Origin: a virus
Taxonomy: Duplodnaviria; Heunggongvirae; Uroviricota; Caudoviricetes
Length of the DNA stretch: 23,379 nucleotides
Reading direction: 5' to 3' (one strand)
IMG/VR virus record: IMGVR_UViG_2690316028_000004
Span: 1 to 23,379 of that record
Shown here: positions 12,344 through 21,740 of the stretch, in pieces
Position numbering within the stretch: position 1 is the first letter of the stretch
Layout: each line of letters begins with the position of its first letter
Made by a program: the position numbers and the translations under genes
The notes under the pieces: model-generated
Told to the model about the DNA's origin: nothing
Databases searched by the model: none
The model's input: only the letters and a program-made list of their open reading frames with translations

Positions 12344-13084
12344 TTACTCAATAGGTTCAAACTCATCTTGAGGAATCAGCGTCGATTGACAGGCTTGGCT
12401 TAGTACCCCTGATAATTTACATAATAACCGATAGTTATGAGGAGCATCATCGCTAATCTTTTCGACCGTTAAAGTGATTGATTTTGGATCATCCAATAAC
12501 ATCTTCTTGATGTCATTACTTAAATACCTAGGGCAGTAACCAACGATTTCAGCTGGTTTATCTGCACGAACGACAACAGCATCCCCATCGTATTCATTTT
12601 GAAGATCCAAGCAAAGACGCAAAATTTGCCCCGGTTTCAATTCAGATACACGAGCATTAGCTAAGCTATTCAAGTAACCAAGTCCATGTAAGAAGAAAAA
12701 ATGCTCAAAGTTACCATCAGAATCAAAATCAATTTTTTTGAAAATCTGCAGCTGATCAGTGCTTCGTAAGCCTCCCGAGCGAGCAAGAATATCGATAGGA
12801 TTTACCTTATCTTCTTCAAATCCAAGCCATTTAATGAAACTCGGATACTCTGGACGTCTCGGTGATAAAAGGCGATTTTTAAAAAGAGGAAACAATTCTT
12901 CCGATACATAAGTTTCACGAACATCACTCATGCCGCTAAACTTTGTAAATTTAGAAGATTTAAGAGCACCTTTGGTATACCTGAAAACATACCCCGATTT
13001 GCGCTCTTGCAAGTTACCAACAACATGCCAGTCTCTGGTATCTGGTGCCTGCCATGCGACGTAAACGGAGTTTGTATTAGTCAT
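12344..13084 (-). CDS. Protein with HipA-N/HipS-like N-terminal region fused to a C-terminal HIRAN domain
   Basis: N-terminus: VVGNLQERKSGYVFRYTKG and LFPLFKNRLLSPRRPEY resemble the HipA N-terminal/HipS pattern. C-terminus: HGLGYL...ELKPGQILRLCLDLQNEYDGDAVVV...EIVGYCPRYLSNDIKKMLLDD fits the HIRAN motif layout. AT-rich; start overlaps the stop of the upstream kinase (ATGA). Confidence 0.6.
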   Translation of the reverse strand: MTNTNSVYVAWQAPDTRDWHVVGNLQERKSGYVFRYTKGALKSSKFTKFSGMSDVRETYVSEELFPLFKNRLLSPRRPEYPSFIKWLGFEEDKVNPIDILARSGGLRSTDQLQIFKKIDFDSDGNFEHFFFLHGLGYLNSLANARVSELKPGQILRLCLDLQNEYDGDAVVVRADKPAEIVGYCPRYLSNDIKKMLLDDPKSITLTVEKISDDAPHNYRLLCKLSGVLSQACQSTLIPQDEFEPIE

Positions 13085-13995
13085 TCTAGTAACCTTCTGC
13101 GATTTTCCATTACCATTAACGTTGCAAATCTACGTGCACTGTCGGATATACACGATGAAGGCACTTGGTTAAACACATCTGTAATGGAATCTTCTGTTAA
13201 AACGCTCAACTTACCTAACCAATGGTCGCGAGCGGCAACTCTCCCTTCAACTGCATGTTGAAATGCTTCAACAGTCAGCAAGGGCTTTTTATCAGTTTTT
13301 GCTTTGAATAGCTCAGAGCGAGCTTTTCTTACAAAACATGGGATTTGTCGATTTTTATCTTTAGTATTAAGCCGTTCGTTACGCTCATCATCTAACATCT
13401 CCCTTCCTAAACTAGCGGCATGATCGTATGTTGGACACAAAAACTGCTCACCAGTTTCATTGTTAAGCATGATTGCCCAATTTTCATGGTGGCGATCTTG
13501 ATTACTCACAAGTGCATCGAGCATCAAATATCCACAAAATACATCTGCTGCATTTAGCCCGGTTAGATCATATACACTCGGAGGAGGCTTGATAGATTCC
13601 CTATCTAAACAACCCAAGACCCTTGTGACAGTGTGTTCTCTGACCCTTACCGGCTTTTCCCCGGCTTGTAAAGGCCCAGGATAATCGAATGTCGAACTGT
13701 GAAGCACTTCATTTCCCATTACCATCCGGAAACCAGATGGAATGATATTCTGAGTCACCACACCGAATCGACCATTGTATCGCGCCAAATCATAGCTAGC
13801 ATGTGGAATGTTAAGCAAATGACATAACTCAGCAGCACACTTTTCAGACCAATGCTCGCCAGTACCTGGCCTAGAGTACTTAAACAACTGCAAATTTACA
13901 GTGTCATCGGAGAAATAGAACCAAAACTTCTCTTTGGTTCCTAACTGTTCAAGATCGTTAGCTACGGGGCTAAGCTCTACCAATTGGTATGGCAT
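13081..13995 (-). CDS. HipA-like Ser/Thr kinase core (HipT-like, lacks the HipA N-subdomain)
   Basis: 304 aa with a Gly-rich GTKEKF loop near the N-terminus, a catalytic-loop-like LDALVSNQDRHHENW and a downstream PTYDH, matching the HipA_C motif arrangement. AT-rich; first gene of a two-gene minus-strand operon. Confidence 0.6.
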   Translation of the reverse strand: MPYQLVELSPVANDLEQLGTKEKFWFYFSDDTVNLQLFKYSRPGTGEHWSEKCAAELCHLLNIPHASYDLARYNGRFGVVTQNIIPSGFRMVMGNEVLHSSTFDYPGPLQAGEKPVRVREHTVTRVLGCLDRESIKPPPSVYDLTGLNAADVFCGYLMLDALVSNQDRHHENWAIMLNNETGEQFLCPTYDHAASLGREMLDDERNERLNTKDKNRQIPCFVRKARSELFKAKTDKKPLLTVEAFQHAVEGRVAARDHWLGKLSVLTEDSITDVFNQVPSSCISDSARRFATLMVMENRRRLLE

Positions 13996-14088: not shown

Positions 14089-14108
14089 TACTGTATGTAT
14101 GTCCAGCA
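14089..14108. promoter_or_regulatory. Weak candidate LexA-box-like dyad upstream of the kinase operon
   Basis: ATACTGTATGTATGTCCAGC has CTG-N10-CAG spacing and an AT-rich centre, about 95 bp upstream of the kinase start codon. It is imperfect (CCAG rather than ACAG). Confidence 0.25.
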
Positions 14109-14147
14109 ATCAAATCAATATATAACTCTTATATGGCTTAACGCGCG

Positions 14148-14166
14148 CTCGTATCCCCGCCACGCC
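14148..14166 (-). other. cos: cos-like cohesive end site
   Basis: The reverse complement reads GGCGTGGCGGGGATACGAG, matching the first 13 nt of the 19-nt P2/186 cohesive end as I recall it (GGCG[A/T]GGCGGGGAAAGCA...). It lies in the non-coding AT-rich gap on the 3' side of Q. Confidence 0.5.
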
Positions 14167-14552
14167 TGCCCGCTTTATGTAGTGGTTTTCATGCACTTGC
14201 ATGACATAAACAAAAGCCCGCCATTCCTGGCGGGCCTCAACTAAAACGATCCTCAAACGATCATGCGAATTCATGCGGCATAGACATGCATTGTTGCTTT
14301 ATCGATCTTTTCTTACTTCAAGTGAGTCCTTATGGCCTCCTGTCCACCTTGCGCTGCGCGTTCCCCCTGCCTCCCTTTGTCATAACTTAGATTTAATCCT
14401 CATAAATCAAGAGGTACTACACAAAGTACCAACTCACAACACTCAACAAACAGCCAATAATGAGCATAATACTAACTTGACTACTCCATAAAAAAATACG
14501 TAAACTACATTCATCAACAGTATTTCTCTAAAAAAGACGGGGTCACAATTCA

Positions 14553-15083
14553 ATGGCTACTACCAACTGTATTACTGTACTTACTGCTCGTGGTTTAACA
14601 GAGATTTTGAACACAGGGGGAAGCCAAGCATGGAGACTTGACGCCAGCCATGCAGCTAAGCACGAATATTTAGTTTGTGTACAAAATTCGAGAAAGGACT
14701 GGGGATCACAAGAAGCAAAACATCATCATGCTTTTATGATCGGTCGAATCTCGGGAGTAAGCAGGGCTCCAGAAAACCCTAAACGCTGGATCATAAACAT
14801 CAATTCTTATGCTGAAATTGACATCCCAGGACAATGGGATGGCAATCGGAATCCCGTTTCTTATCGCAACCTCAAAGACATTGGCATTGAGGCTGACAAG
14901 TTGGAATTTAAAGCTCTTCCCAAATTAACCCCGACTAATTCGATTGTCGATCAAGCGGGTGATGAGTACGAAGAAGAAGAAGAAAATGTAGTTAAGCCGT
15001 TAACACTTCAGGAGGCAAAAGCAGGGCTAGCCCTATACTTTGGTGTTAATGAAGAAAATATTCAAATAACTATACAAGGTTAA
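14553..15083 (+). CDS. Hypothetical protein (176 aa, acidic C-terminal stretch) at the old/tin-equivalent cargo position
   Basis: ORF in an AT-rich island between cos and the SOS operon, on the strand opposite its neighbours. No motif recognised with confidence. Confidence 0.6.
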   Translation: MATTNCITVLTARGLTEILNTGGSQAWRLDASHAAKHEYLVCVQNSRKDWGSQEAKHHHAFMIGRISGVSRAPENPKRWIININSYAEIDIPGQWDGNRNPVSYRNLKDIGIEADKLEFKALPKLTPTNSIVDQAGDEYEEEEENVVKPLTLQEAKAGLALYFGVNEENIQITIQG

Positions 15084-15304
15084 GGCTTTTAAACCGGCAT
15101 AAGTGGCCATTACTTTTCGTTCGAAGTGGCGCTTCCGGTCTAACAAGCATCTAATAGGATTTTCGTATCTATCACAAATCCCAAAAGGTAATTTGCAGCC
15201 CATCATACGTAGCAAAACTAACGTTCGGTTAAATCTGAGCGGAAGTGAAAATAATGGTTACTGTATTTTACCCCATGACTAATGCCCCACTAAACTAGTT
15301 GTTC

Positions 15305-15347
15305 AACGTTGCTGACGTCAGAAGCAAGTTCAGACGCCAGCAACGTT
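15305..15347. terminator. Long inverted repeat / candidate bidirectional terminator between convergent genes
   Basis: AACGTTGCTGACGTC ... GACGCCAGCAACGTT forms a 15-bp stem with one G-U-compatible mismatch and a 13-nt loop, followed by TTTCTT on the plus strand. It lies between the 176-aa gene and the DinI-like gene. Confidence 0.5.
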
Positions 15348-15349
15348 TC

Positions 15350-15583
15350 TTAATGCAGCCAGCTGTCGTCTTCCCACACTTTCTGCATAATTTTCATCAC
15401 TTGCTTCCTTTCTTCGTCCAGTTGCAGTCCGGTCAGTTCCACACCGTTAGAGCTACCTTTGCGGATGCGAATTACCGTTTTTGGATATAGGGGGCGCAGA
15501 TTGCGGTAAAGCTCGTATTCAAGGGCGTCCAGGGTAGACTGGCTAATCTTCTGCTCTTTATCGATCATTATTTCAATGCGCAT
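15350..15583 (-). CDS. DinI-family protein (SOS-regulated; possible Tum-like antirepressor component)
   Basis: 77 aa beginning MRIEIMIDK... and ending ...VWEDDSWLH, matching the DinI pattern (MRIEV...W at the C-terminus). Downstream of a LexA-box promoter. Confidence 0.75.
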   Translation of the reverse strand: MRIEIMIDKEQKISQSTLDALEYELYRNLRPLYPKTVIRIRKGSSNGVELTGLQLDEERKQVMKIMQKVWEDDSWLH

Positions 15584-15594
15584 AAAAAGTCACC

Positions 15595-15783
15595 TCAACT
15601 GATGACATCCATTGAGCGGTTGTATTCATGGGTTCTGATTTTTGCCATGAGTTCATCAGTTAATTCAGAAACCCACTGCAGAGCCAGCCCCTTCTCTTCA
15701 TCACTACACTCACTAGCCGCTACAAGCTTAAGAAAAAAATCAATGCGCTGGAGCTTCAAAGACTCCAAAAAATAGTCCTGCAT
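15595..15783 (-). CDS. Small hypothetical protein, first gene of the SOS operon
   Basis: 62-aa ORF directly downstream of the LexA-box promoter and 11 bp upstream of the DinI-like gene, in a different frame. Confidence 0.5.
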   Translation of the reverse strand: MQDYFLESLKLQRIDFFLKLVAASECSDEEKGLALQWVSELTDELMAKIRTHEYNRSMDVIS

Positions 15784-15810
15784 CTTTCCTCCTATGACAC
15801 CAAAGCAATA

Positions 15811-15866
15811 CTGTATACATAACCACTGTTTATATTTACAGTATATAATAATCTTACTGATGTAAA
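15811..15866 (-). promoter_or_regulatory. SOS promoter with LexA operator (p95/tum-like)
   Basis: Perfect CTGT-N8-ACAG at 15826..15841 (CACTGTTTATATTTACAGTAT) and an adjacent half-site (CTGTATACAT at 15811). On the minus strand TTTACA (-35), a 15-nt spacer and TATACT (-10) overlap the box. Confidence 0.7.
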
Positions 15867-15935: not shown

Positions 15936-18356
15936 TTAATACAGGTTCCGCCACTTATCATCTTCCTTCAGACGCTGGTTCCGATAGAAGATACGCAAGC
16001 CTGCTCCTGATGGAATACTGCCGCCGCGAAGGAGTAAATCGACCTCTTTCTCGCTGCCATCAAATCCTCTGGACTTCAGTTCATAGACGAGCTGCTGTCG
16101 TTGATGGTCTGTAATTCGCTGTTTGTAGTCTCTACGCCGTTTCGGTTTCACCAGACGTAACCTTGCAGCCAGTTCCCGGCGCTCTTTTTTGTTCATACTG
16201 TGCAGGTAATCGTGCAACTCCCTGTCATCCATGCGGGTAATATCCGTTCTGGTGTCCCCATCAGCTGATTTATCTTTCTCCTGTTGGTTCAAATTTTCAG
16301 CAAGGGGACAGTTATTGCCACGAGTCCGAGTCCAAGGGGCGCAAGCGCCCTGGTCGGCTGCCGCCTCCTGAACGTCAACGGCTTTACGAACCATTTTCCA
16401 CTTCACTGCATGAGTGCAGATCTTGCCCTCTGCAATGGGTGACCAGATGCCATAAATACGAATACCGTGATCGCCATAGGCGGTCGGCTCTTCATTGATT
16501 TCATAAGCGGTTCTGATCAAGTGATATTTGCGAGGAACCAGCACGCCGCCCTGCCTCATAATGTAGGTGGCAAAACAGCCAGCATCAGCAGCAGCCAGGA
16601 TGGCATCAAGGCGCGGGTTATCCAGTACCGGCGCACCTGCTTTTTTGTCACCCTGCTGCCTTGCCGCCTGACCAGCCAACAACCGCAGTTCACGGTAAGC
16701 CTGACGCCCTGGAATACCAAAGAAGCGGAATTGCTGAACACGATGCAGAGACGCCCAGGCATTAACGTATTCAGCGTTATCACGCAGGGATTTACCCGTT
16801 TCCTTGCTGATCTCGCCAGCCAGACCACGCCCGTCAATGTTCTTACTGATGTATTTCGCGATGTAGCTTGTTGGCGTACCTTTGCGCGGGTTTATCAGCT
16901 CAGACTTAAAGCGTGGTCCTGTGTTATTACCCAGCTCCTCGCGGTCTTCACGAATGGCAAACTTACGCAACAAAGCAGTAATGGCGCGGCGATCTTTTTT
17001 GCGCATAAAACACAACAGGTGCCAGTGAACTGTACCGTCATGATGCGGCTCAGCCACCCGCACGCCATACCAGCGCAATCCGGCTTTGTGCATCGCCTTA
17101 CGAAATGCAGCAAACATGCCGACCAGATAATCACTGCTTTGTCTTACCGTCGCATTTGTCCAGGTCGGGTTGGGCCTGCCGTTATTTAGCGTGGAATGGA
17201 AACGTGACGGACAGGTGATGGTGTAGAAAACGGCGCAGTCACCGCGCATTTCCGCGATAAGCTCCAGACCTTTAACACAGGCCATCATCTCATTGCGGCG
17301 ATGTGCCGGGTTGCTGCTGCTGGCGTTTACCACATCTTCCATATCCAGCGTGTCGCCGTCTTCGTTCACCAGTTCATGAGAACGGAAAAACTCCAGCGAC
17401 TTACGGCGCTGCTCACGTTTATGCGTCACGGCTTCATAGCTGACATAGGGAGATGCTTTTTTGCTGACCAGGCAGACAGCACGCAACTGCTCTTCCCGCC
17501 ATTCGCAACGCATCTTCCACAATTTTCGATACCACCAGTCGGCGCAAAGCATACGTGCCAGCGAACCCGGTATGAGTTCATAGGGCACGGGTTTGCGGCG
17601 GTTTCTTTTCCGGCGGAGTTGCTCAAACGCAGGCGGGATAACATCCAGTCGCAGGGTTTCCGCTGCCACCTTTTCCCATGTCTTGCGGATTTCTTCTGGC
17701 TTAACGTCATCGGTGGCATATAAATCGCCACAAGCGGCATCAAGGCACATGCTCATATGCGCAGCTACCAGGGTGGACAGGCGCTTTACCTGATCCTGAC
17801 TCATTTCAGGCAGGATCAGCAGGCCCTCAAGCCCTTGATGGCTTGCCATAAAACGGAAAGAAGCGGATAGCTGACTGTCGCGTACACAATCCAGTCGCTC
17901 CAGACATGGCTTAATCGTCTCACGCAAATAGCGGGAATAAGCCTTTGGCCTGCCCAGGCTGCTGAAGTATTCGATACGTTGCATCAGCGGCTTGCTGATG
18001 TGGGTTGGCTGGGCGCTGACATCTGCCAGAATGACCATGTCCGGGTTAAAAAGCTGCTGCTCATGCGCAAGCTTTGCGCGGCTAATGAGCTTATCCTGCT
18101 CCATTTCGCGCTGGACAGGATCACGGGATTCATTAAAGAAATAACGCTCCCAGACCTGCTCACTCAGTGCCTCGCGGCGCAGTTGTTCCTGCTCGTTATC
18201 GGCAGCATACAGAGTGATCAGGTTTGAAAGTGCAGACTCCGGCGCAAATTCCGCCGGGTCCAGATAAGGGTTAATGGCCTTTTTCGGGCCGTTCCATGAA
18301 AATGATGCAGCGGCCTCGTTAAAGCCGCTAGAGTTGCTCATATCGTCATGACTCAT
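15936..18356 (-). CDS. A: Replication initiation protein A (rolling-circle nickase type)
   Basis: 806-aa ORF in the P2/186 gene A position at the end of the early operon; its start overlaps the Dam stop (ATGA). Confidence 0.85.
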
Positions 18357-21025: not shown

Positions 21026-21170
21026 AAGGCAACATTCCTTCTAGATATGGCTTGTGGCGAGCCGTTGTTTGTCGTGATTAGTAGTGAAGGCTCCAAAAGA
21101 AGACTTCTGGTTCAACTTTAAGATCGCTTTTGGAATCTGTCAACGAATTTTGGATTTCTTTGGAGGATTT
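21026..21170. promoter_or_regulatory. Immunity switch region (pR/pL-type promoters and operators)
   Basis: Non-coding interval between the divergent apl/cox start and the probable CI start; P2/186 phages place their lytic and lysogenic promoters here. Individual operators were not resolved. Confidence 0.5.
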
Positions 21171-21740
21171 GTGGATTTCAATAGCGGCGGTAAGAAAGCC
21201 ATAGAACGTTTGGTTGAAGCATACGGGTTCGGTACCCGTCAGGCTCTCTGTGATCATTTAGGTGTTTCTAAGAGCACCATGGCAACGCGTTATATGCGTG
21301 ATATTTTTCCGGCAGATTGGGTAATCCAGTGCGCCCTTGAAACGGGTACCTCGCTTAATTGGCTAACAACAGGGCATGGTTCAAAGCAAGCATCAGCAAA
21401 TACAAATACTATAGAAGTAGTAAAATATTTATTGTCTGATGGAGCATTGCAGGAAGACGGTTTTTATATTTTTGATAAGGGATTTCTACCCTCTACGTTT
21501 AAAAAACCTTTTGTCATCACAGATAACAATTCTGAATTTATTTGTGATAAAGAATTTGATGATATACGTGATGGTAAATGGGTAATAAGTATTGATGGCG
21601 AAATAACAATCCGCGACATCACTCGTTTACCCGGTGGAAGAATTTTCGTTGAAGGTGGAAACAGAGCCTTCGAGTGCAAGATAGAAGATGTTGAAATAAT
21701 TGGAAAAATTATAAGCTTAACAGTTAAGTATGTTAGATAA
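21171..21740 (+). CDS. cI: CI-like immunity repressor
   Basis: Probable GTG start at 21171 preceded by GGAGG (21162..21166). The N-terminus contains the ERLVEAYGF and HCALETG...NWL motifs I recall from 186 CI. The ORF track offers a longer frame from a GTG at 21084. Confidence 0.7.
   Translation: MDFNSGGKKAIERLVEAYGFGTRQALCDHLGVSKSTMATRYMRDIFPADWVIQCALETGTSLNWLTTGHGSKQASANTNTIEVVKYLLSDGALQEDGFYIFDKGFLPSTFKKPFVITDNNSEFICDKEFDDIRDGKWVISIDGEITIRDITRLPGGRIFVEGGNRAFECKIEDVEIIGKIISLTVKYVR

Follow-up and report, generated by a model that had tools for sequence, protein, structure and literature searches.

The region at positions 15350 to 15866 of the window, which is the whole stretch of 23,379 nucleotides of viral DNA that was analyzed, is very probably the SOS induction operon of a P2-like prophage of the Fels-2/DuoHS type with 186-type immunity, and the 62-amino-acid (aa) product of its first gene is very probably the antirepressor of this prophage. 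The probability of this explanation as a whole is estimated at about 0.88. The operon is a split tum (tumA-tumB) operon, the DNA damage switch already characterized in 186/Fels-2-type P2-like prophages. It is genuine but ordinary and does not extend the known model.

Position and architecture of the operon

All elements that had been placed by an earlier, sequence-only reading were recovered on the minus strand, where they directly follow the P2-type replication gene A (Table 1). A pattern search returned the perfect CTGT-N8-ACAG box over a −10-like hexamer that had been described, and the 62-aa open reading frame (ORF62, TumA) and the DinI-like gene (ORF77, TumB) were found right behind this box, as claimed. 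The placement of these genes behind gene A and close to the right cos end is the same order as in 186, PSP3, Fels-2, and DuoHS. The window holds only part of the prophage, and a search of Rfam over the whole window gave no match. The tum operon is located at the edge of a cargo hotspot, with candidate defense genes adjoining. In Escherichia coli CFSAN061772, the tum module is 100% identical to that of the window, but the layout of CI and gpA differs.

Table 1. Features of the tum region and associated genes in the window
Feature	Position	Strand	Remarks
cos	14148-14166		
Intrinsic terminator, GGCCCGCC-loop-GGCGGGC + TTTTGTTT	14208-14236	minus	Canonical, just before cos
Strong stem-loop right after the tumB stop	15305-15347	minus	RNA fold −35.1 kcal/mol, z −4.2; no U tract
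tumB	15350-15583	minus	77 aa, DinI family
tumA-tumB gap	Between 15595 and 15583	minus	11 nt, contains GAGGTG
tumA	15595-15783	minus	62 aa, acidic, two-helix (predicted)
Shine-Dalgarno (SD) sequence of tumA, AGGAGG	15788-15793	minus	
LexA box 2, CAGTGGTTATGTATACAGTA	15809-15828	minus	Overlaps box 1 by 5 nt
LexA box 1, 20-mer TACTGTAAATATAAACAGTG	15824-15843	minus	Core CTGT-N8-ACAG at 15826-15841
Putative −10, TACTGT	15843-15838	minus	17-nt spacer; overlapped by LexA box 1
Alternative putative −10, TATACT	15845-15840	minus	15-nt spacer; overlapped by LexA box 1
Putative −35 of the tum promoter, TTTACA	15861-15866	minus	Matches the 186 p95 −35 position (TTCACA)
gpA (replication gene A)	15936-18356		
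cI, 186-type immunity repressor	21084-21740	plus	Probable start GTG at 21171

The proposed match to the SOS operon of 186 (p95-tum-orf97) held for the position, the promoter/LexA layout, and the DinI-like moiety. The 186 operon likewise follows gene A close to the right cos end, its promoter p95 has the arrangement TTCACA-N18-TACTGT with the LexA site over the annotated −10 hexamer TACTGT, as in the window, and 186 Tum is composed of an N-terminal domain and a DinI-like domain, both of which are also encoded by the window operon. The two operons differ in that 186 Tum is a single protein of 146 aa, the DinI-like part of which is additionally made from an internal start, whereas the window contains two genes; in that 186 possesses one LexA box instead of two overlapping boxes; and in that orf97, located downstream in 186, is absent from the window, which has other cargo instead. 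PSP3 possesses the same two-gene split, tumA and tumB, behind a LexA box, but this box is single, PSP3 TumA belongs to another subfamily (phrog_1993) with about 22% identity to the window TumA and no BLAST match, and the CI of PSP3 contains a duplicated N-terminal domain.

Essentially the same module as in the window, with an identical −35 hexamer, an identical box 1, and a double operator, is present in Fels-2 (STM2728/STM2726.1) and in DuoHS (ECHS_RS04495/ECHS_RS04500). Other genes are located behind tumB in these two prophages, whereas in the window tumB is followed by a hairpin and by a 176-aa ORF in convergent orientation. The primary source for the split tum of Fels-2 is said to be Bunny et al. 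2002. A LexA-repressed dinI together with a small antirepressor acting against a noncleavable repressor is also known from Gifsy-1, Gifsy-2, and Fels-1 (gfoA, gftA, fsoA; PMC3121763); these phages are lambdoid, however, with dinI as the first gene and with antirepressor and repressor families unrelated to those of the window.

TumA as the probable antirepressor

BLASTP did not align ORF62 with either 186 Tum or PSP3 TumA in pairwise comparisons, so that the homology of TumA rests on profiles and synteny. On this basis, TumA and the N-terminal half of 186 Tum are homologous, with an identity of only about 20%. In PHROG cross-comparisons, residues 1 to 70 of 186 Tum hit phrog_698 at 5.9e-6, and ORF62 hit phrog_8554 at 2.4e-8 and phrog_1993 at 2.2e-3. 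With a hidden Markov model of the ORF62 family, 186 Tum scored 27 bits and a Yersinia “tum protein” 33 bits, and hhalign aligned TumA with the N-terminal half of 186 Tum over residues 1 to 45 with a probability of 96.6% and an E value of 5e-10. Among 1.84 billion representatives searched by phmmer, ORF62 had only about 66 relatives, which were small stand-alone proteins; a fused Tum was not among them. TumA is identical at 61/62 positions to Fels-2 STM2728 and likewise to DuoHS ECHS_RS04495, and a pN/pS of 0 to 0.05 indicates purifying selection on ORF62. The AF2 model of TumA is a helical hairpin (pLDDT of 89.7), a generic fold for which Foldseek gave no significant match; ORF62 had no family in Pfam or PADLOC and no sequence relative in the PDB.

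The sequence-only reading had left open which of the two products is the antirepressor, but a published answer exists (PSP3 annotation; PMC3121763; PMC12055606), and it is the 62-aa product. In the E. coli HS prophage DuoHS, Δtum and lexA(Ind−) each abolish induction by mitomycin C (Phollow study, PMC12055606). The primers used for this deletion fused the ATG to the TGA of the 62-aa gene and kept the dinI-like gene and its SD sequence; primer NHR24, which includes the SD sequence AGGAGG of tumA, matches positions 15781 to 15803 of the window with one mismatch. The deletion addresses the necessity of the 62-aa gene, not its sufficiency, with a polar effect on translation of tumB uncontrolled. 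The tum gene is split in two in Fels-2 and PSP3 (PMC3121763). The PSP3 annotation lists tumA, “UV induction of prophage,” plus tumB, and antirepressor activity was assigned to the upstream PSP3 gene (Lemire 2011, PMC3121763, from a personal communication given there and thus second-hand). In Fels-2, STM2727 was induced 5.5- to 14.8-fold by a mutagen, and STM2726 to STM2728 act as one operon (PMC2225428).

TumB and the DinI-like moiety

ORF77 matched the Pfam family DinI (PF06183) over profile positions 1 to 63 of 63 with an E value of 1.9e-22 and 79.8 bits (gathering threshold of 24.2), and TumB belongs to PHROG 189, “RecA filament binding protein DinI.” It is identical at 76/77 positions (99%) to the DinI-family protein of Fels-2 and shares 78% identity with PSP3 TumB. 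The alignment with 186 Tum and host DinI that had been suggested as a check was run: the identity to the C-terminal half of 186 Tum (residues 71 to 145) was 41% (41 to 42% across comparisons), and phmmer aligned residues 1 to 75 on 1 to 77 with E. coli DinI (PDB 1GHH) at an E value of 6e-6. This full-length alignment extends through the acidic motif of the C-terminal helix (...WEDDSW versus ...WESADDW), but the identity to E. coli DinI is low, and TumB differs from it in being phage encoded and cotranscribed with the antirepressor. The pN/pS of ORF77, 0.03 to 0.13, indicates purifying selection. Judged from its family, TumB is probably a modulator of RecA filaments, and a modulation of RecA may reasonably be suggested, in line with the annotation of 186, which reads “modulates SOS induction.”

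In a survey of 288 loci, the dinI gene was separate, fused, or absent, depending on the lineage. It was located directly downstream of tumA as tumB in 65/65 Fels-2-type loci, and the two moieties were fused in frame in 67 of the 69 186-type loci. Among loci with a LexA box and tumA, dinI was present in 0/66 of the ev015 type and 1/21 of the Yersinia type, and 24 of the 67 PSP3-type loci were without it. By gene content, entire lineages that retain the LexA box and tumA can dispense with DinI. A count by protein lengths, according to which split forms would predominate among the 186-type relatives of Tum, was discarded because many of the short proteins result from truncated gene calls and because 67/69 of the closest 186-type loci in the survey are fused.

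The survey bears on an alternative assignment of the functions, in which the antirepressor is TumB, or in which both products are jointly needed like the two halves of 186 Tum, so that ORF62 alone would be insufficient. The lineages without dinI argue against this assignment, as does the loss of induction in the DuoHS deletion with tumB and its SD sequence intact, although that experiment concerns the necessity of tumA alone and had no control for polar effects on the translation of tumB. The single 146-aa polypeptide of 186, the in-frame fusions in its relatives, and the constant position of tumB under purifying selection would agree with a joint action; the DinI-like part of 186, however, is also made separately from the internal start and is annotated as a modulator, and the antirepressor activity in PSP3 was assigned to the upstream gene. 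A direct or joint antirepressor function of TumB is considered very unlikely.

Even less probable is a role of the operon as a host-directed SOS “moron,” composed of a DinI-like modulator of RecA and an unrelated small protein that aids the lysogen, with no function in prophage induction. ORF62 is homologous to the N-terminal domain of Tum, the 98%-identical DuoHS gene is needed for induction, and the module is syntenic with the tum genes of 186 and PSP3 in the presence of a repressor of the noncleavable 186 type. These observations outweigh that DinI homologues are common SOS genes of the lysogenic conversion type, that candidate defense genes adjoin the operon at the hotspot edge, and that ORF62 is without a Pfam family.

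Promoter and LexA operator

The −35 hexamer TTTACA is invariant across the window, DuoHS, and Fels-2 and aligns with the TTGACA hexamer in the promoters of colicin E1 and pesticin. Together with one of the two −10 hexamers (Table 1), it may function as the tum promoter. A strict sigma-70 scan called no promoter at this site because TACTGT matches TATAAT at only 3/6 positions. The region is AT-rich.

Of the LexA site described in the sequence-only reading, the presence and the perfect core stood, but the assumption of a single box did not, since the operator is double, with a second box overlapping the first. Using a weight matrix trained on operator sites, box 1 had the top LexA score in the window with 22 bits, compared to 10 to 28 bits for known E. 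coli operators, and box 2 scored 19 bits (plus strand). The strict CTGT-N8-ACAG pattern alone is insignificant, with 0.38 matches expected per window and at least one match in 32/100 shuffles. However, 287 of the 288 nonredundant related viral loci had a LexA box that scored 15 bits or more and was located no further than 150 nt upstream of a tumA-like start, compared to 4/3280 control windows (0.12%), and the box is kept in seven divergent phages although the flanks diverge.

The operator itself is, by its sequence, a colicin-type double overlapping LexA site. Two LexA sites 14 to 16 nt apart occurred in 55/65 Fels-2-type loci. From the −35 hexamer through box 1, the window is identical to DuoHS, and variation between the operators of the window, DuoHS, and Fels-2 is confined to spacer positions. 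A BLAST search with the operator matched more than 1000 Col-type plasmids, with matches just upstream of cea and pst, and a column-by-column alignment showed that the double operator corresponds base for base to those of colicin E1 (cea) and Yersinia pestis pesticin (pst). These operators span 35 to 40 nt, contain two LexA boxes offset by 15 nt, and are near-identical to that of the window; they differ in the plasmid bacteriocin genes downstream and in boxes positioned 11 nt further from the −35 hexamer. The colicin double operator is reportedly bound by two LexA dimers, leading to very tight repression with undetectable basal expression (PMC2994835). Direct binding of LexA at positions 15809 to 15843 is predicted, and two LexA dimers on this operator may result in a tight or late induction.

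A fortuitous CTGT-N8-ACAG match in front of a constitutive or phage-factor-controlled operon, as the chance expectation and the AT-rich region might suggest, is the least probable alternative by the scores of both boxes, their conservation between diverging flanks, the near-identity to the experimentally known colicin E1 operator, the damage induction of the Fels-2 genes, and the block of DuoHS induction by lexA(Ind−).

The CI repressor and the proposed switch

The window CI contains the Pfam domains Phage_CI_repr and Phage_CI_C, and no S24 peptidase domain was found in it by Pfam. Its identity is 33% to 186 CI, 86% to DuoHS CI, and overall 39 to 42% to Fels-2 CI. The CI of 186 is not cleaved by RecA, and the window CI is also of the 186 type. 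For a 186-type CI without an S24 peptidase match, an antirepressor route is expected, which supports the earlier claim of an antirepressor-based SOS induction. CI is the presumed target of TumA.

In the undamaged cell, host LexA on the double operator over the −10 and start region would keep the tum promoter shut. DNA damage would activate RecA, leading to self-cleavage of LexA and firing of the tum promoter. TumA would then bind CI noncovalently and keep it from binding its operators, and the inactivation of CI would derepress the early lytic promoter and direct the prophage into lytic growth. The antirepressor biochemistry of 186 Tum, which is binding of CI and prevention of operator binding, was reportedly described by Shearwin 1998. 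TumB most likely binds RecA filaments, tuning how strong the SOS signal is or how long it lasts, and would be an accessory protein, not an antirepressor. A contact between TumA and CI in this element is predicted.

The relationship between both proteins was evaluated with 149 unique TumA/CI combinations. Among pairs with at least 95% identical TumA proteins, the median identity of CI was 77% in the N-terminal domain and 42% in the C-terminal domain, and 1508 of 2267 such pairs had CI C-terminal domains with less than 60% identity. TumA identity follows the identity of the CI N-terminal domain even when the C-terminal domains are unrelated (rho of 0.70), a correlation confounded by phylogeny, since it comprises only about two deep lineages. 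Identical TumA proteins are paired with CIs that possess unrelated C-terminal domains but conserved N-terminal DNA-binding domains, and identical CIs occur with TumA variants that are only about 50% identical. It is conceivable, with the odds somewhat against it, that TumA is a broad-spectrum antirepressor that recognizes the N-terminal DNA-binding domain of 186-type CIs, perhaps as an acidic DNA-mimicking hairpin, and that the double LexA operator is a lineage-specific device that sets a high damage threshold. If so, one TumA could neutralize the CIs of numerous Fels-2-like prophages with unrelated C-terminal oligomerization domains, and heteroimmune P2-like prophages sharing a host would be cross-induced.

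Occurrence and annotation of the module

The operon would set the timing of the exit of the prophage from the chromosome, via LexA and a small antirepressor and not by repressor cleavage. Of 5426 complete E. coli genomes, 1125 carry the tum module, and prophages of Salmonella and Klebsiella contain it as well. Nevertheless, nearly all annotations of the 62-aa gene read “hypothetical protein” or, incorrectly, “levan regulatory protein.” Because the module is common but mislabeled, labeling of tumA should be useful for the prediction of SOS-inducible P2-like prophages. Modest additions to the known model concern the double colicin-type operator, the optional DinI, and the decoupling of TumA from the C-terminal domain of CI.

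Downstream of tumB and end of the transcript

A terminator scan and RNA folding gave no canonical terminator directly after tumB. The sole terminator-like match of the scan, a weak hairpin at the tumA/tumB junction, was no better than shuffles (z of −0.42) and was rejected. The strong stem-loop that follows the tumB stop is located at the edge of the conserved module, as the similarity to most related phages stops at about position 15295 or 15352. This stem-loop is possibly the end of the transcript or a stabilizer, so that the location of the transcript end given here is a predicted one. The canonical terminator just before cos is the positional equivalent of 186 t95b (186 annotation) and may be the distal end of read-through tum transcripts.

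Position of the tum operon and its known relatives

The window belongs to a P2/186-like prophage (Peduoviridae), reads in reverse compared to the P2 map, and encodes a terminase, portal, capsid, CII, Dam methylase, and 186-type CI repressor besides the gpA replication protein. The tum operon is located between gene A and cos, at the right-hand genome end, and exactly this interval is occupied by the SOS operon of phage 186.

Features of the tum region and of the cargo loci in the window
Feature	Position	Strand	Evidence or remark
−35 motif TTTACA	15866-15861	−	sequence
−10 motif TACTGT	15843-15838	−	sequence; after 17-nt spacer
LexA box 1, 20-mer TACTGTAAATATAAACAGTG	15843-15824	−	perfect CTGT-N8-ACAG core, 15826-15841
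LexA box 2 CAGTGGTTATGTATACAGTA	15828-15809		weight-matrix scan; overlaps box 1 by 5 nt
tumA (ORF62), 62 codons	15783-15595	−	sequence
tumB (ORF77), 77 codons	15583-15350	−	Pfam DinI PF06183, E 1.9e-22
Stem-loop	15305-15347	−	15+3 bp; −35 kcal/mol, z −4.2; no U tract
176-aa ORF (ORF176)	14553-15083	+	phrog_37247
Canonical terminator	14208-14236		just before cos; placed where 186 has t95b
cos (cohesive-end site) GGCGTGGCGGGGATACGAG	14148-14166	−	15/19 positions shared with 186 cos; flank also conserved
Second LexA-like box TGCTGGACATACATACAGTA	14089-14108	both	21 bits
Cargo pair, HipA-like kinase (304 aa) and HIRAN-domain protein (246 aa)	12344-13995	−	between cos and portal gene
gpA replication protein, 806 aa	15936-18356	−	Pfam Phage_GPA, E 7e-128
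cI (repressor)	21084-21740	+	
KAP-family P-loop NTPase, 443 aa	21952-23283	+	Pfam E 1.4e-53; immediately after cI

The tumA/tumB arrangement is already known. The GenBank record of phage PSP3 lists tumA ("similar to 5' end 186 tum; UV induction of prophage") and tumB, and Lemire et al. (PMC3121763) report that tum is split in two in Fels-2 and PSP3, with antirepressor activity in the upstream PSP3 gene. The module occurs in about a fifth of the complete E. coli genomes (1,125 of 5,426). The observation of an SOS-controlled operon was confirmed and its interpretation supported, and the system adds one more copy of a known, experimentally tested module; what small interest is left concerns its colicin-type operator and the relation of TumA to the CI domains.

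Promoter and LexA operator

The sequence-only reading placed a perfect LexA box over a −10-like hexamer on the minus strand, upstream of a 62-aa ORF and a DinI-like gene, and likened this to the 186 SOS/tum operon. All these elements are present, with a strong ribosome-binding site preceding the 62-codon ORF, and the likeness is supported by the same genome position and the same promoter layout, since annotated 186 p95 is TTCACA-N18-TACTGT with LexA over the −10 site. The bare CTGT-N8-ACAG pattern is statistically unremarkable, with 0.38 occurrences expected per window. No site in the window matches a LexA weight matrix, trained on known sites, better than box 1, whose 22 bits compare with 10 to 28 bits for real E. 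coli operators. A generic promoter scan did not call the tum promoter.

Box 2 indicates that the operator is double, which refines the single box of the earlier reading. Phages 186 and PSP3, a Yersinia phage, and ESSI-2-like phages possess one LexA box, whereas the window has two; the pair is present in 55 of 65 Fels-2-type viral loci, and variation of box 2 between the window, Fels-2, and DuoHS, a P2-like prophage of E. coli HS, is limited to spacer positions. A BLAST search with the 40-nt operator matched more than 1,000 small Col-type plasmids, at sites about 40 nt upstream of the genes for colicin E1 (cea) and Yersinia pestis pesticin (pst), and the double operator aligns column for column with the cea/pst operators. 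A published study reports that colicin-type double operators, occupied by two LexA dimers, cause very tight repression, with basal expression not detectable (PMC2994835). The double operator of the window would likely raise the damage threshold of induction or delay its firing.

Identity of the two gene products

ORF62 matched no Pfam family, and BLAST revealed no similarity to 186 Tum or PSP3 TumA, while 61 of its 62 residues are identical to those of Fels-2 STM2728. A profile search matched it to PHROGs 698, 8554, and 1993; PSP3 TumA belongs to phrog_1993, and residues 1 to 70 of 186 Tum match 1993, 8554, and 698 (5.9e-6). With an HMM from ORF62 relatives, 186 Tum reached 27 bits and a Yersinia "tum protein" 33 bits. 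The alignment with 186 Tum that the sequence-only reading had proposed was obtained by hhalign of the two family alignments (probability 96.6%, E 5e-10, residues 1 to 45 of both). Because the profiles connect the families, ORF62 is identified as TumA, the free-standing counterpart of the Tum N-domain. TumA is acidic, with a net charge of about −5 as counted from the sequence, and its structure prediction, of high confidence (pLDDT 89.7), is a two-helix hairpin, for which no informative structural neighbors were found.

TumA homologues (relatives of ORF62 such as P0018; MK416009.1, 6146-6436) are nearly everywhere labeled "hypothetical protein" and now and then "levan regulatory (domain) protein," apparently a misannotation that has spread between records. 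In some cases, the gene is called with an upstream extension, to 87 to 96 aa.

The ORFs are separated by 11 nt containing GAGGTG, tumB's own. ORF77 shares 99% identity with the "DinI family protein" of Fels-2, 78% with PSP3 TumB, and 42% with the 186 Tum C-terminal half, and in the proposed comparison with host DinI it aligned over the entire length with E. coli DinI (1GHH, E 6e-6). By these similarities, ORF77 is assigned as TumB. Purifying selection is strong on both tumA (pN/pS 0 to 0.05) and tumB (0.03 to 0.13).

Directly after the tumB stop, the unusually stable stem-loop could be a terminator, a stabilizer, or the recombination boundary of a cargo hotspot; similarity to most related phages stops at or just past it. 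Between tumB and cos, the convergent ORF176 had no Pfam or PADLOC match. The conserved non-coding block 14141-14290, which holds cos and the canonical terminator, is found in 1,272 E. coli genomes.

Induction and the antirepressor

In Salmonella with Fels-2, STM2726 to STM2728 behaved as a single operon, and STM2727 showed one of the strongest inductions by a mutagen within the LexA regulon, at 5.5- to 14.8-fold (PMC2225428). Mitomycin C fails to induce DuoHS in a lexA(Ind-) host, and deletion of "tum" likewise blocks this induction (PMC12055606, Phollow). The deletion primers, one of which aligns with window positions 15781-15803 with 1 mismatch, fuse the ATG and TGA of ECHS_RS04495 and keep the following ATGCGCATTG... 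gene. ECHS_RS04495 spans 189 bp and immediately precedes the DinI-like gene, and its product is identical to ORF62 in 61 of 62 positions. DuoHS is identical to the window from the −35 motif through box 1, and its CI is 86% identical. The sequence-only reading had left open which product is the antirepressor; this question has thus been answered experimentally in a near-identical element, in which the 62-aa gene is required and the DinI-like gene alone is insufficient. The deletion bears on the necessity of TumA, and it might also act on tumB by polarity.

Among 288 non-redundant IMG/VR loci from five TumA subfamilies, 287 had a LexA box scoring 15 bits or more in the 150 nt that precede the tumA-like start, compared to 4 of 3,280 control windows. 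The DinI-like gene is separate and downstream in the Fels-2 type (65/65), separate (43/67) or absent (24/67) in the PSP3 type, absent in the ESSI2_ev015 (66/66) and Yersinia (20/21) types, and fused in frame in the 186 type (67/69). In these loci, the LexA box plus the TumA domain is the invariant unit and DinI an optional module, which agrees with TumA as the antirepressor.

TumA and the CI domains

In eight sequenced phages, TumA is 98 to 100% identical and CII and gpA are 88 to 99% identical, but CI occurs in at least six types with 37 to 58% pairwise identity. CI of the window and of phages L002, L008, and L012 to L016 is a mosaic: the N-terminal helix-turn-helix domain is 60 to 98% identical, and the variation lies mainly in the C-terminal domain, swapped among the at least six types (28 to 97% identity) although CII, gpA, TumA, and TumB are nearly identical. 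For 202 long-flank viral loci, which comprise 149 unique TumA/CI combinations, the median identity between pairs that share a TumA was 77% in the N-domain and 42% in the C-domain. TumA identity correlated with N-domain identity (rho 0.75; 0.70 with unrelated C-domains) and more weakly with C-domain identity (rho 0.53; 0.28 with similar N-domains), and identical CIs also accompanied TumA variants that share only about 50% identity. These data argue against a tightly co-evolving, C-domain-specific TumA-CI interface and are compatible with TumA recognizing the conserved DNA-binding domain of CI. This pattern is a lead rather than a result because the pairs are non-independent and form essentially two deep lineages. 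In PSP3 CI (286 aa; L019, 319-1179), the N-terminal helix-turn-helix domain is present in two tandem copies.

Cargo genes and a second LexA-like box

The cargo pair matches PADLOC PDC-M03A/B, a candidate defense system (E 2e-122 and 7e-93), and this flank is rare, being found in about 21 E. coli genomes. The second LexA-like box lies about 95 to 113 nt upstream of this operon, whose first gene starts at 13995; no clear promoter could be assigned at the box. Of 9 related loci, 4 (in an Enterobacteriaceae MAG, Pectobacterium, a Pseudoalteromonadaceae MAG, and Buttiauxella) carry at −99 to −114 a box that differs in sequence and keeps the CTG-N10-CAG frame of the window's box. This suggests that PDC-M03 is SOS-regulated.

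The KAP-family NTPase may be another defense-type cargo gene. Fels-2 carries int at this position and DuoHS a small ORF followed by int; cI next to the KAP gene was found in 34 complete E. coli genomes. E. coli CFSAN061772 (NZ_CP042893.1, 2988009-3026759) contains a related prophage as two tandem, tail-deleted copies with truncated tape-measure genes; in one copy, the tum module, ORF176, and the PDC-M03 cargo are 100% identical to the window, and the cI/gpA region differs.
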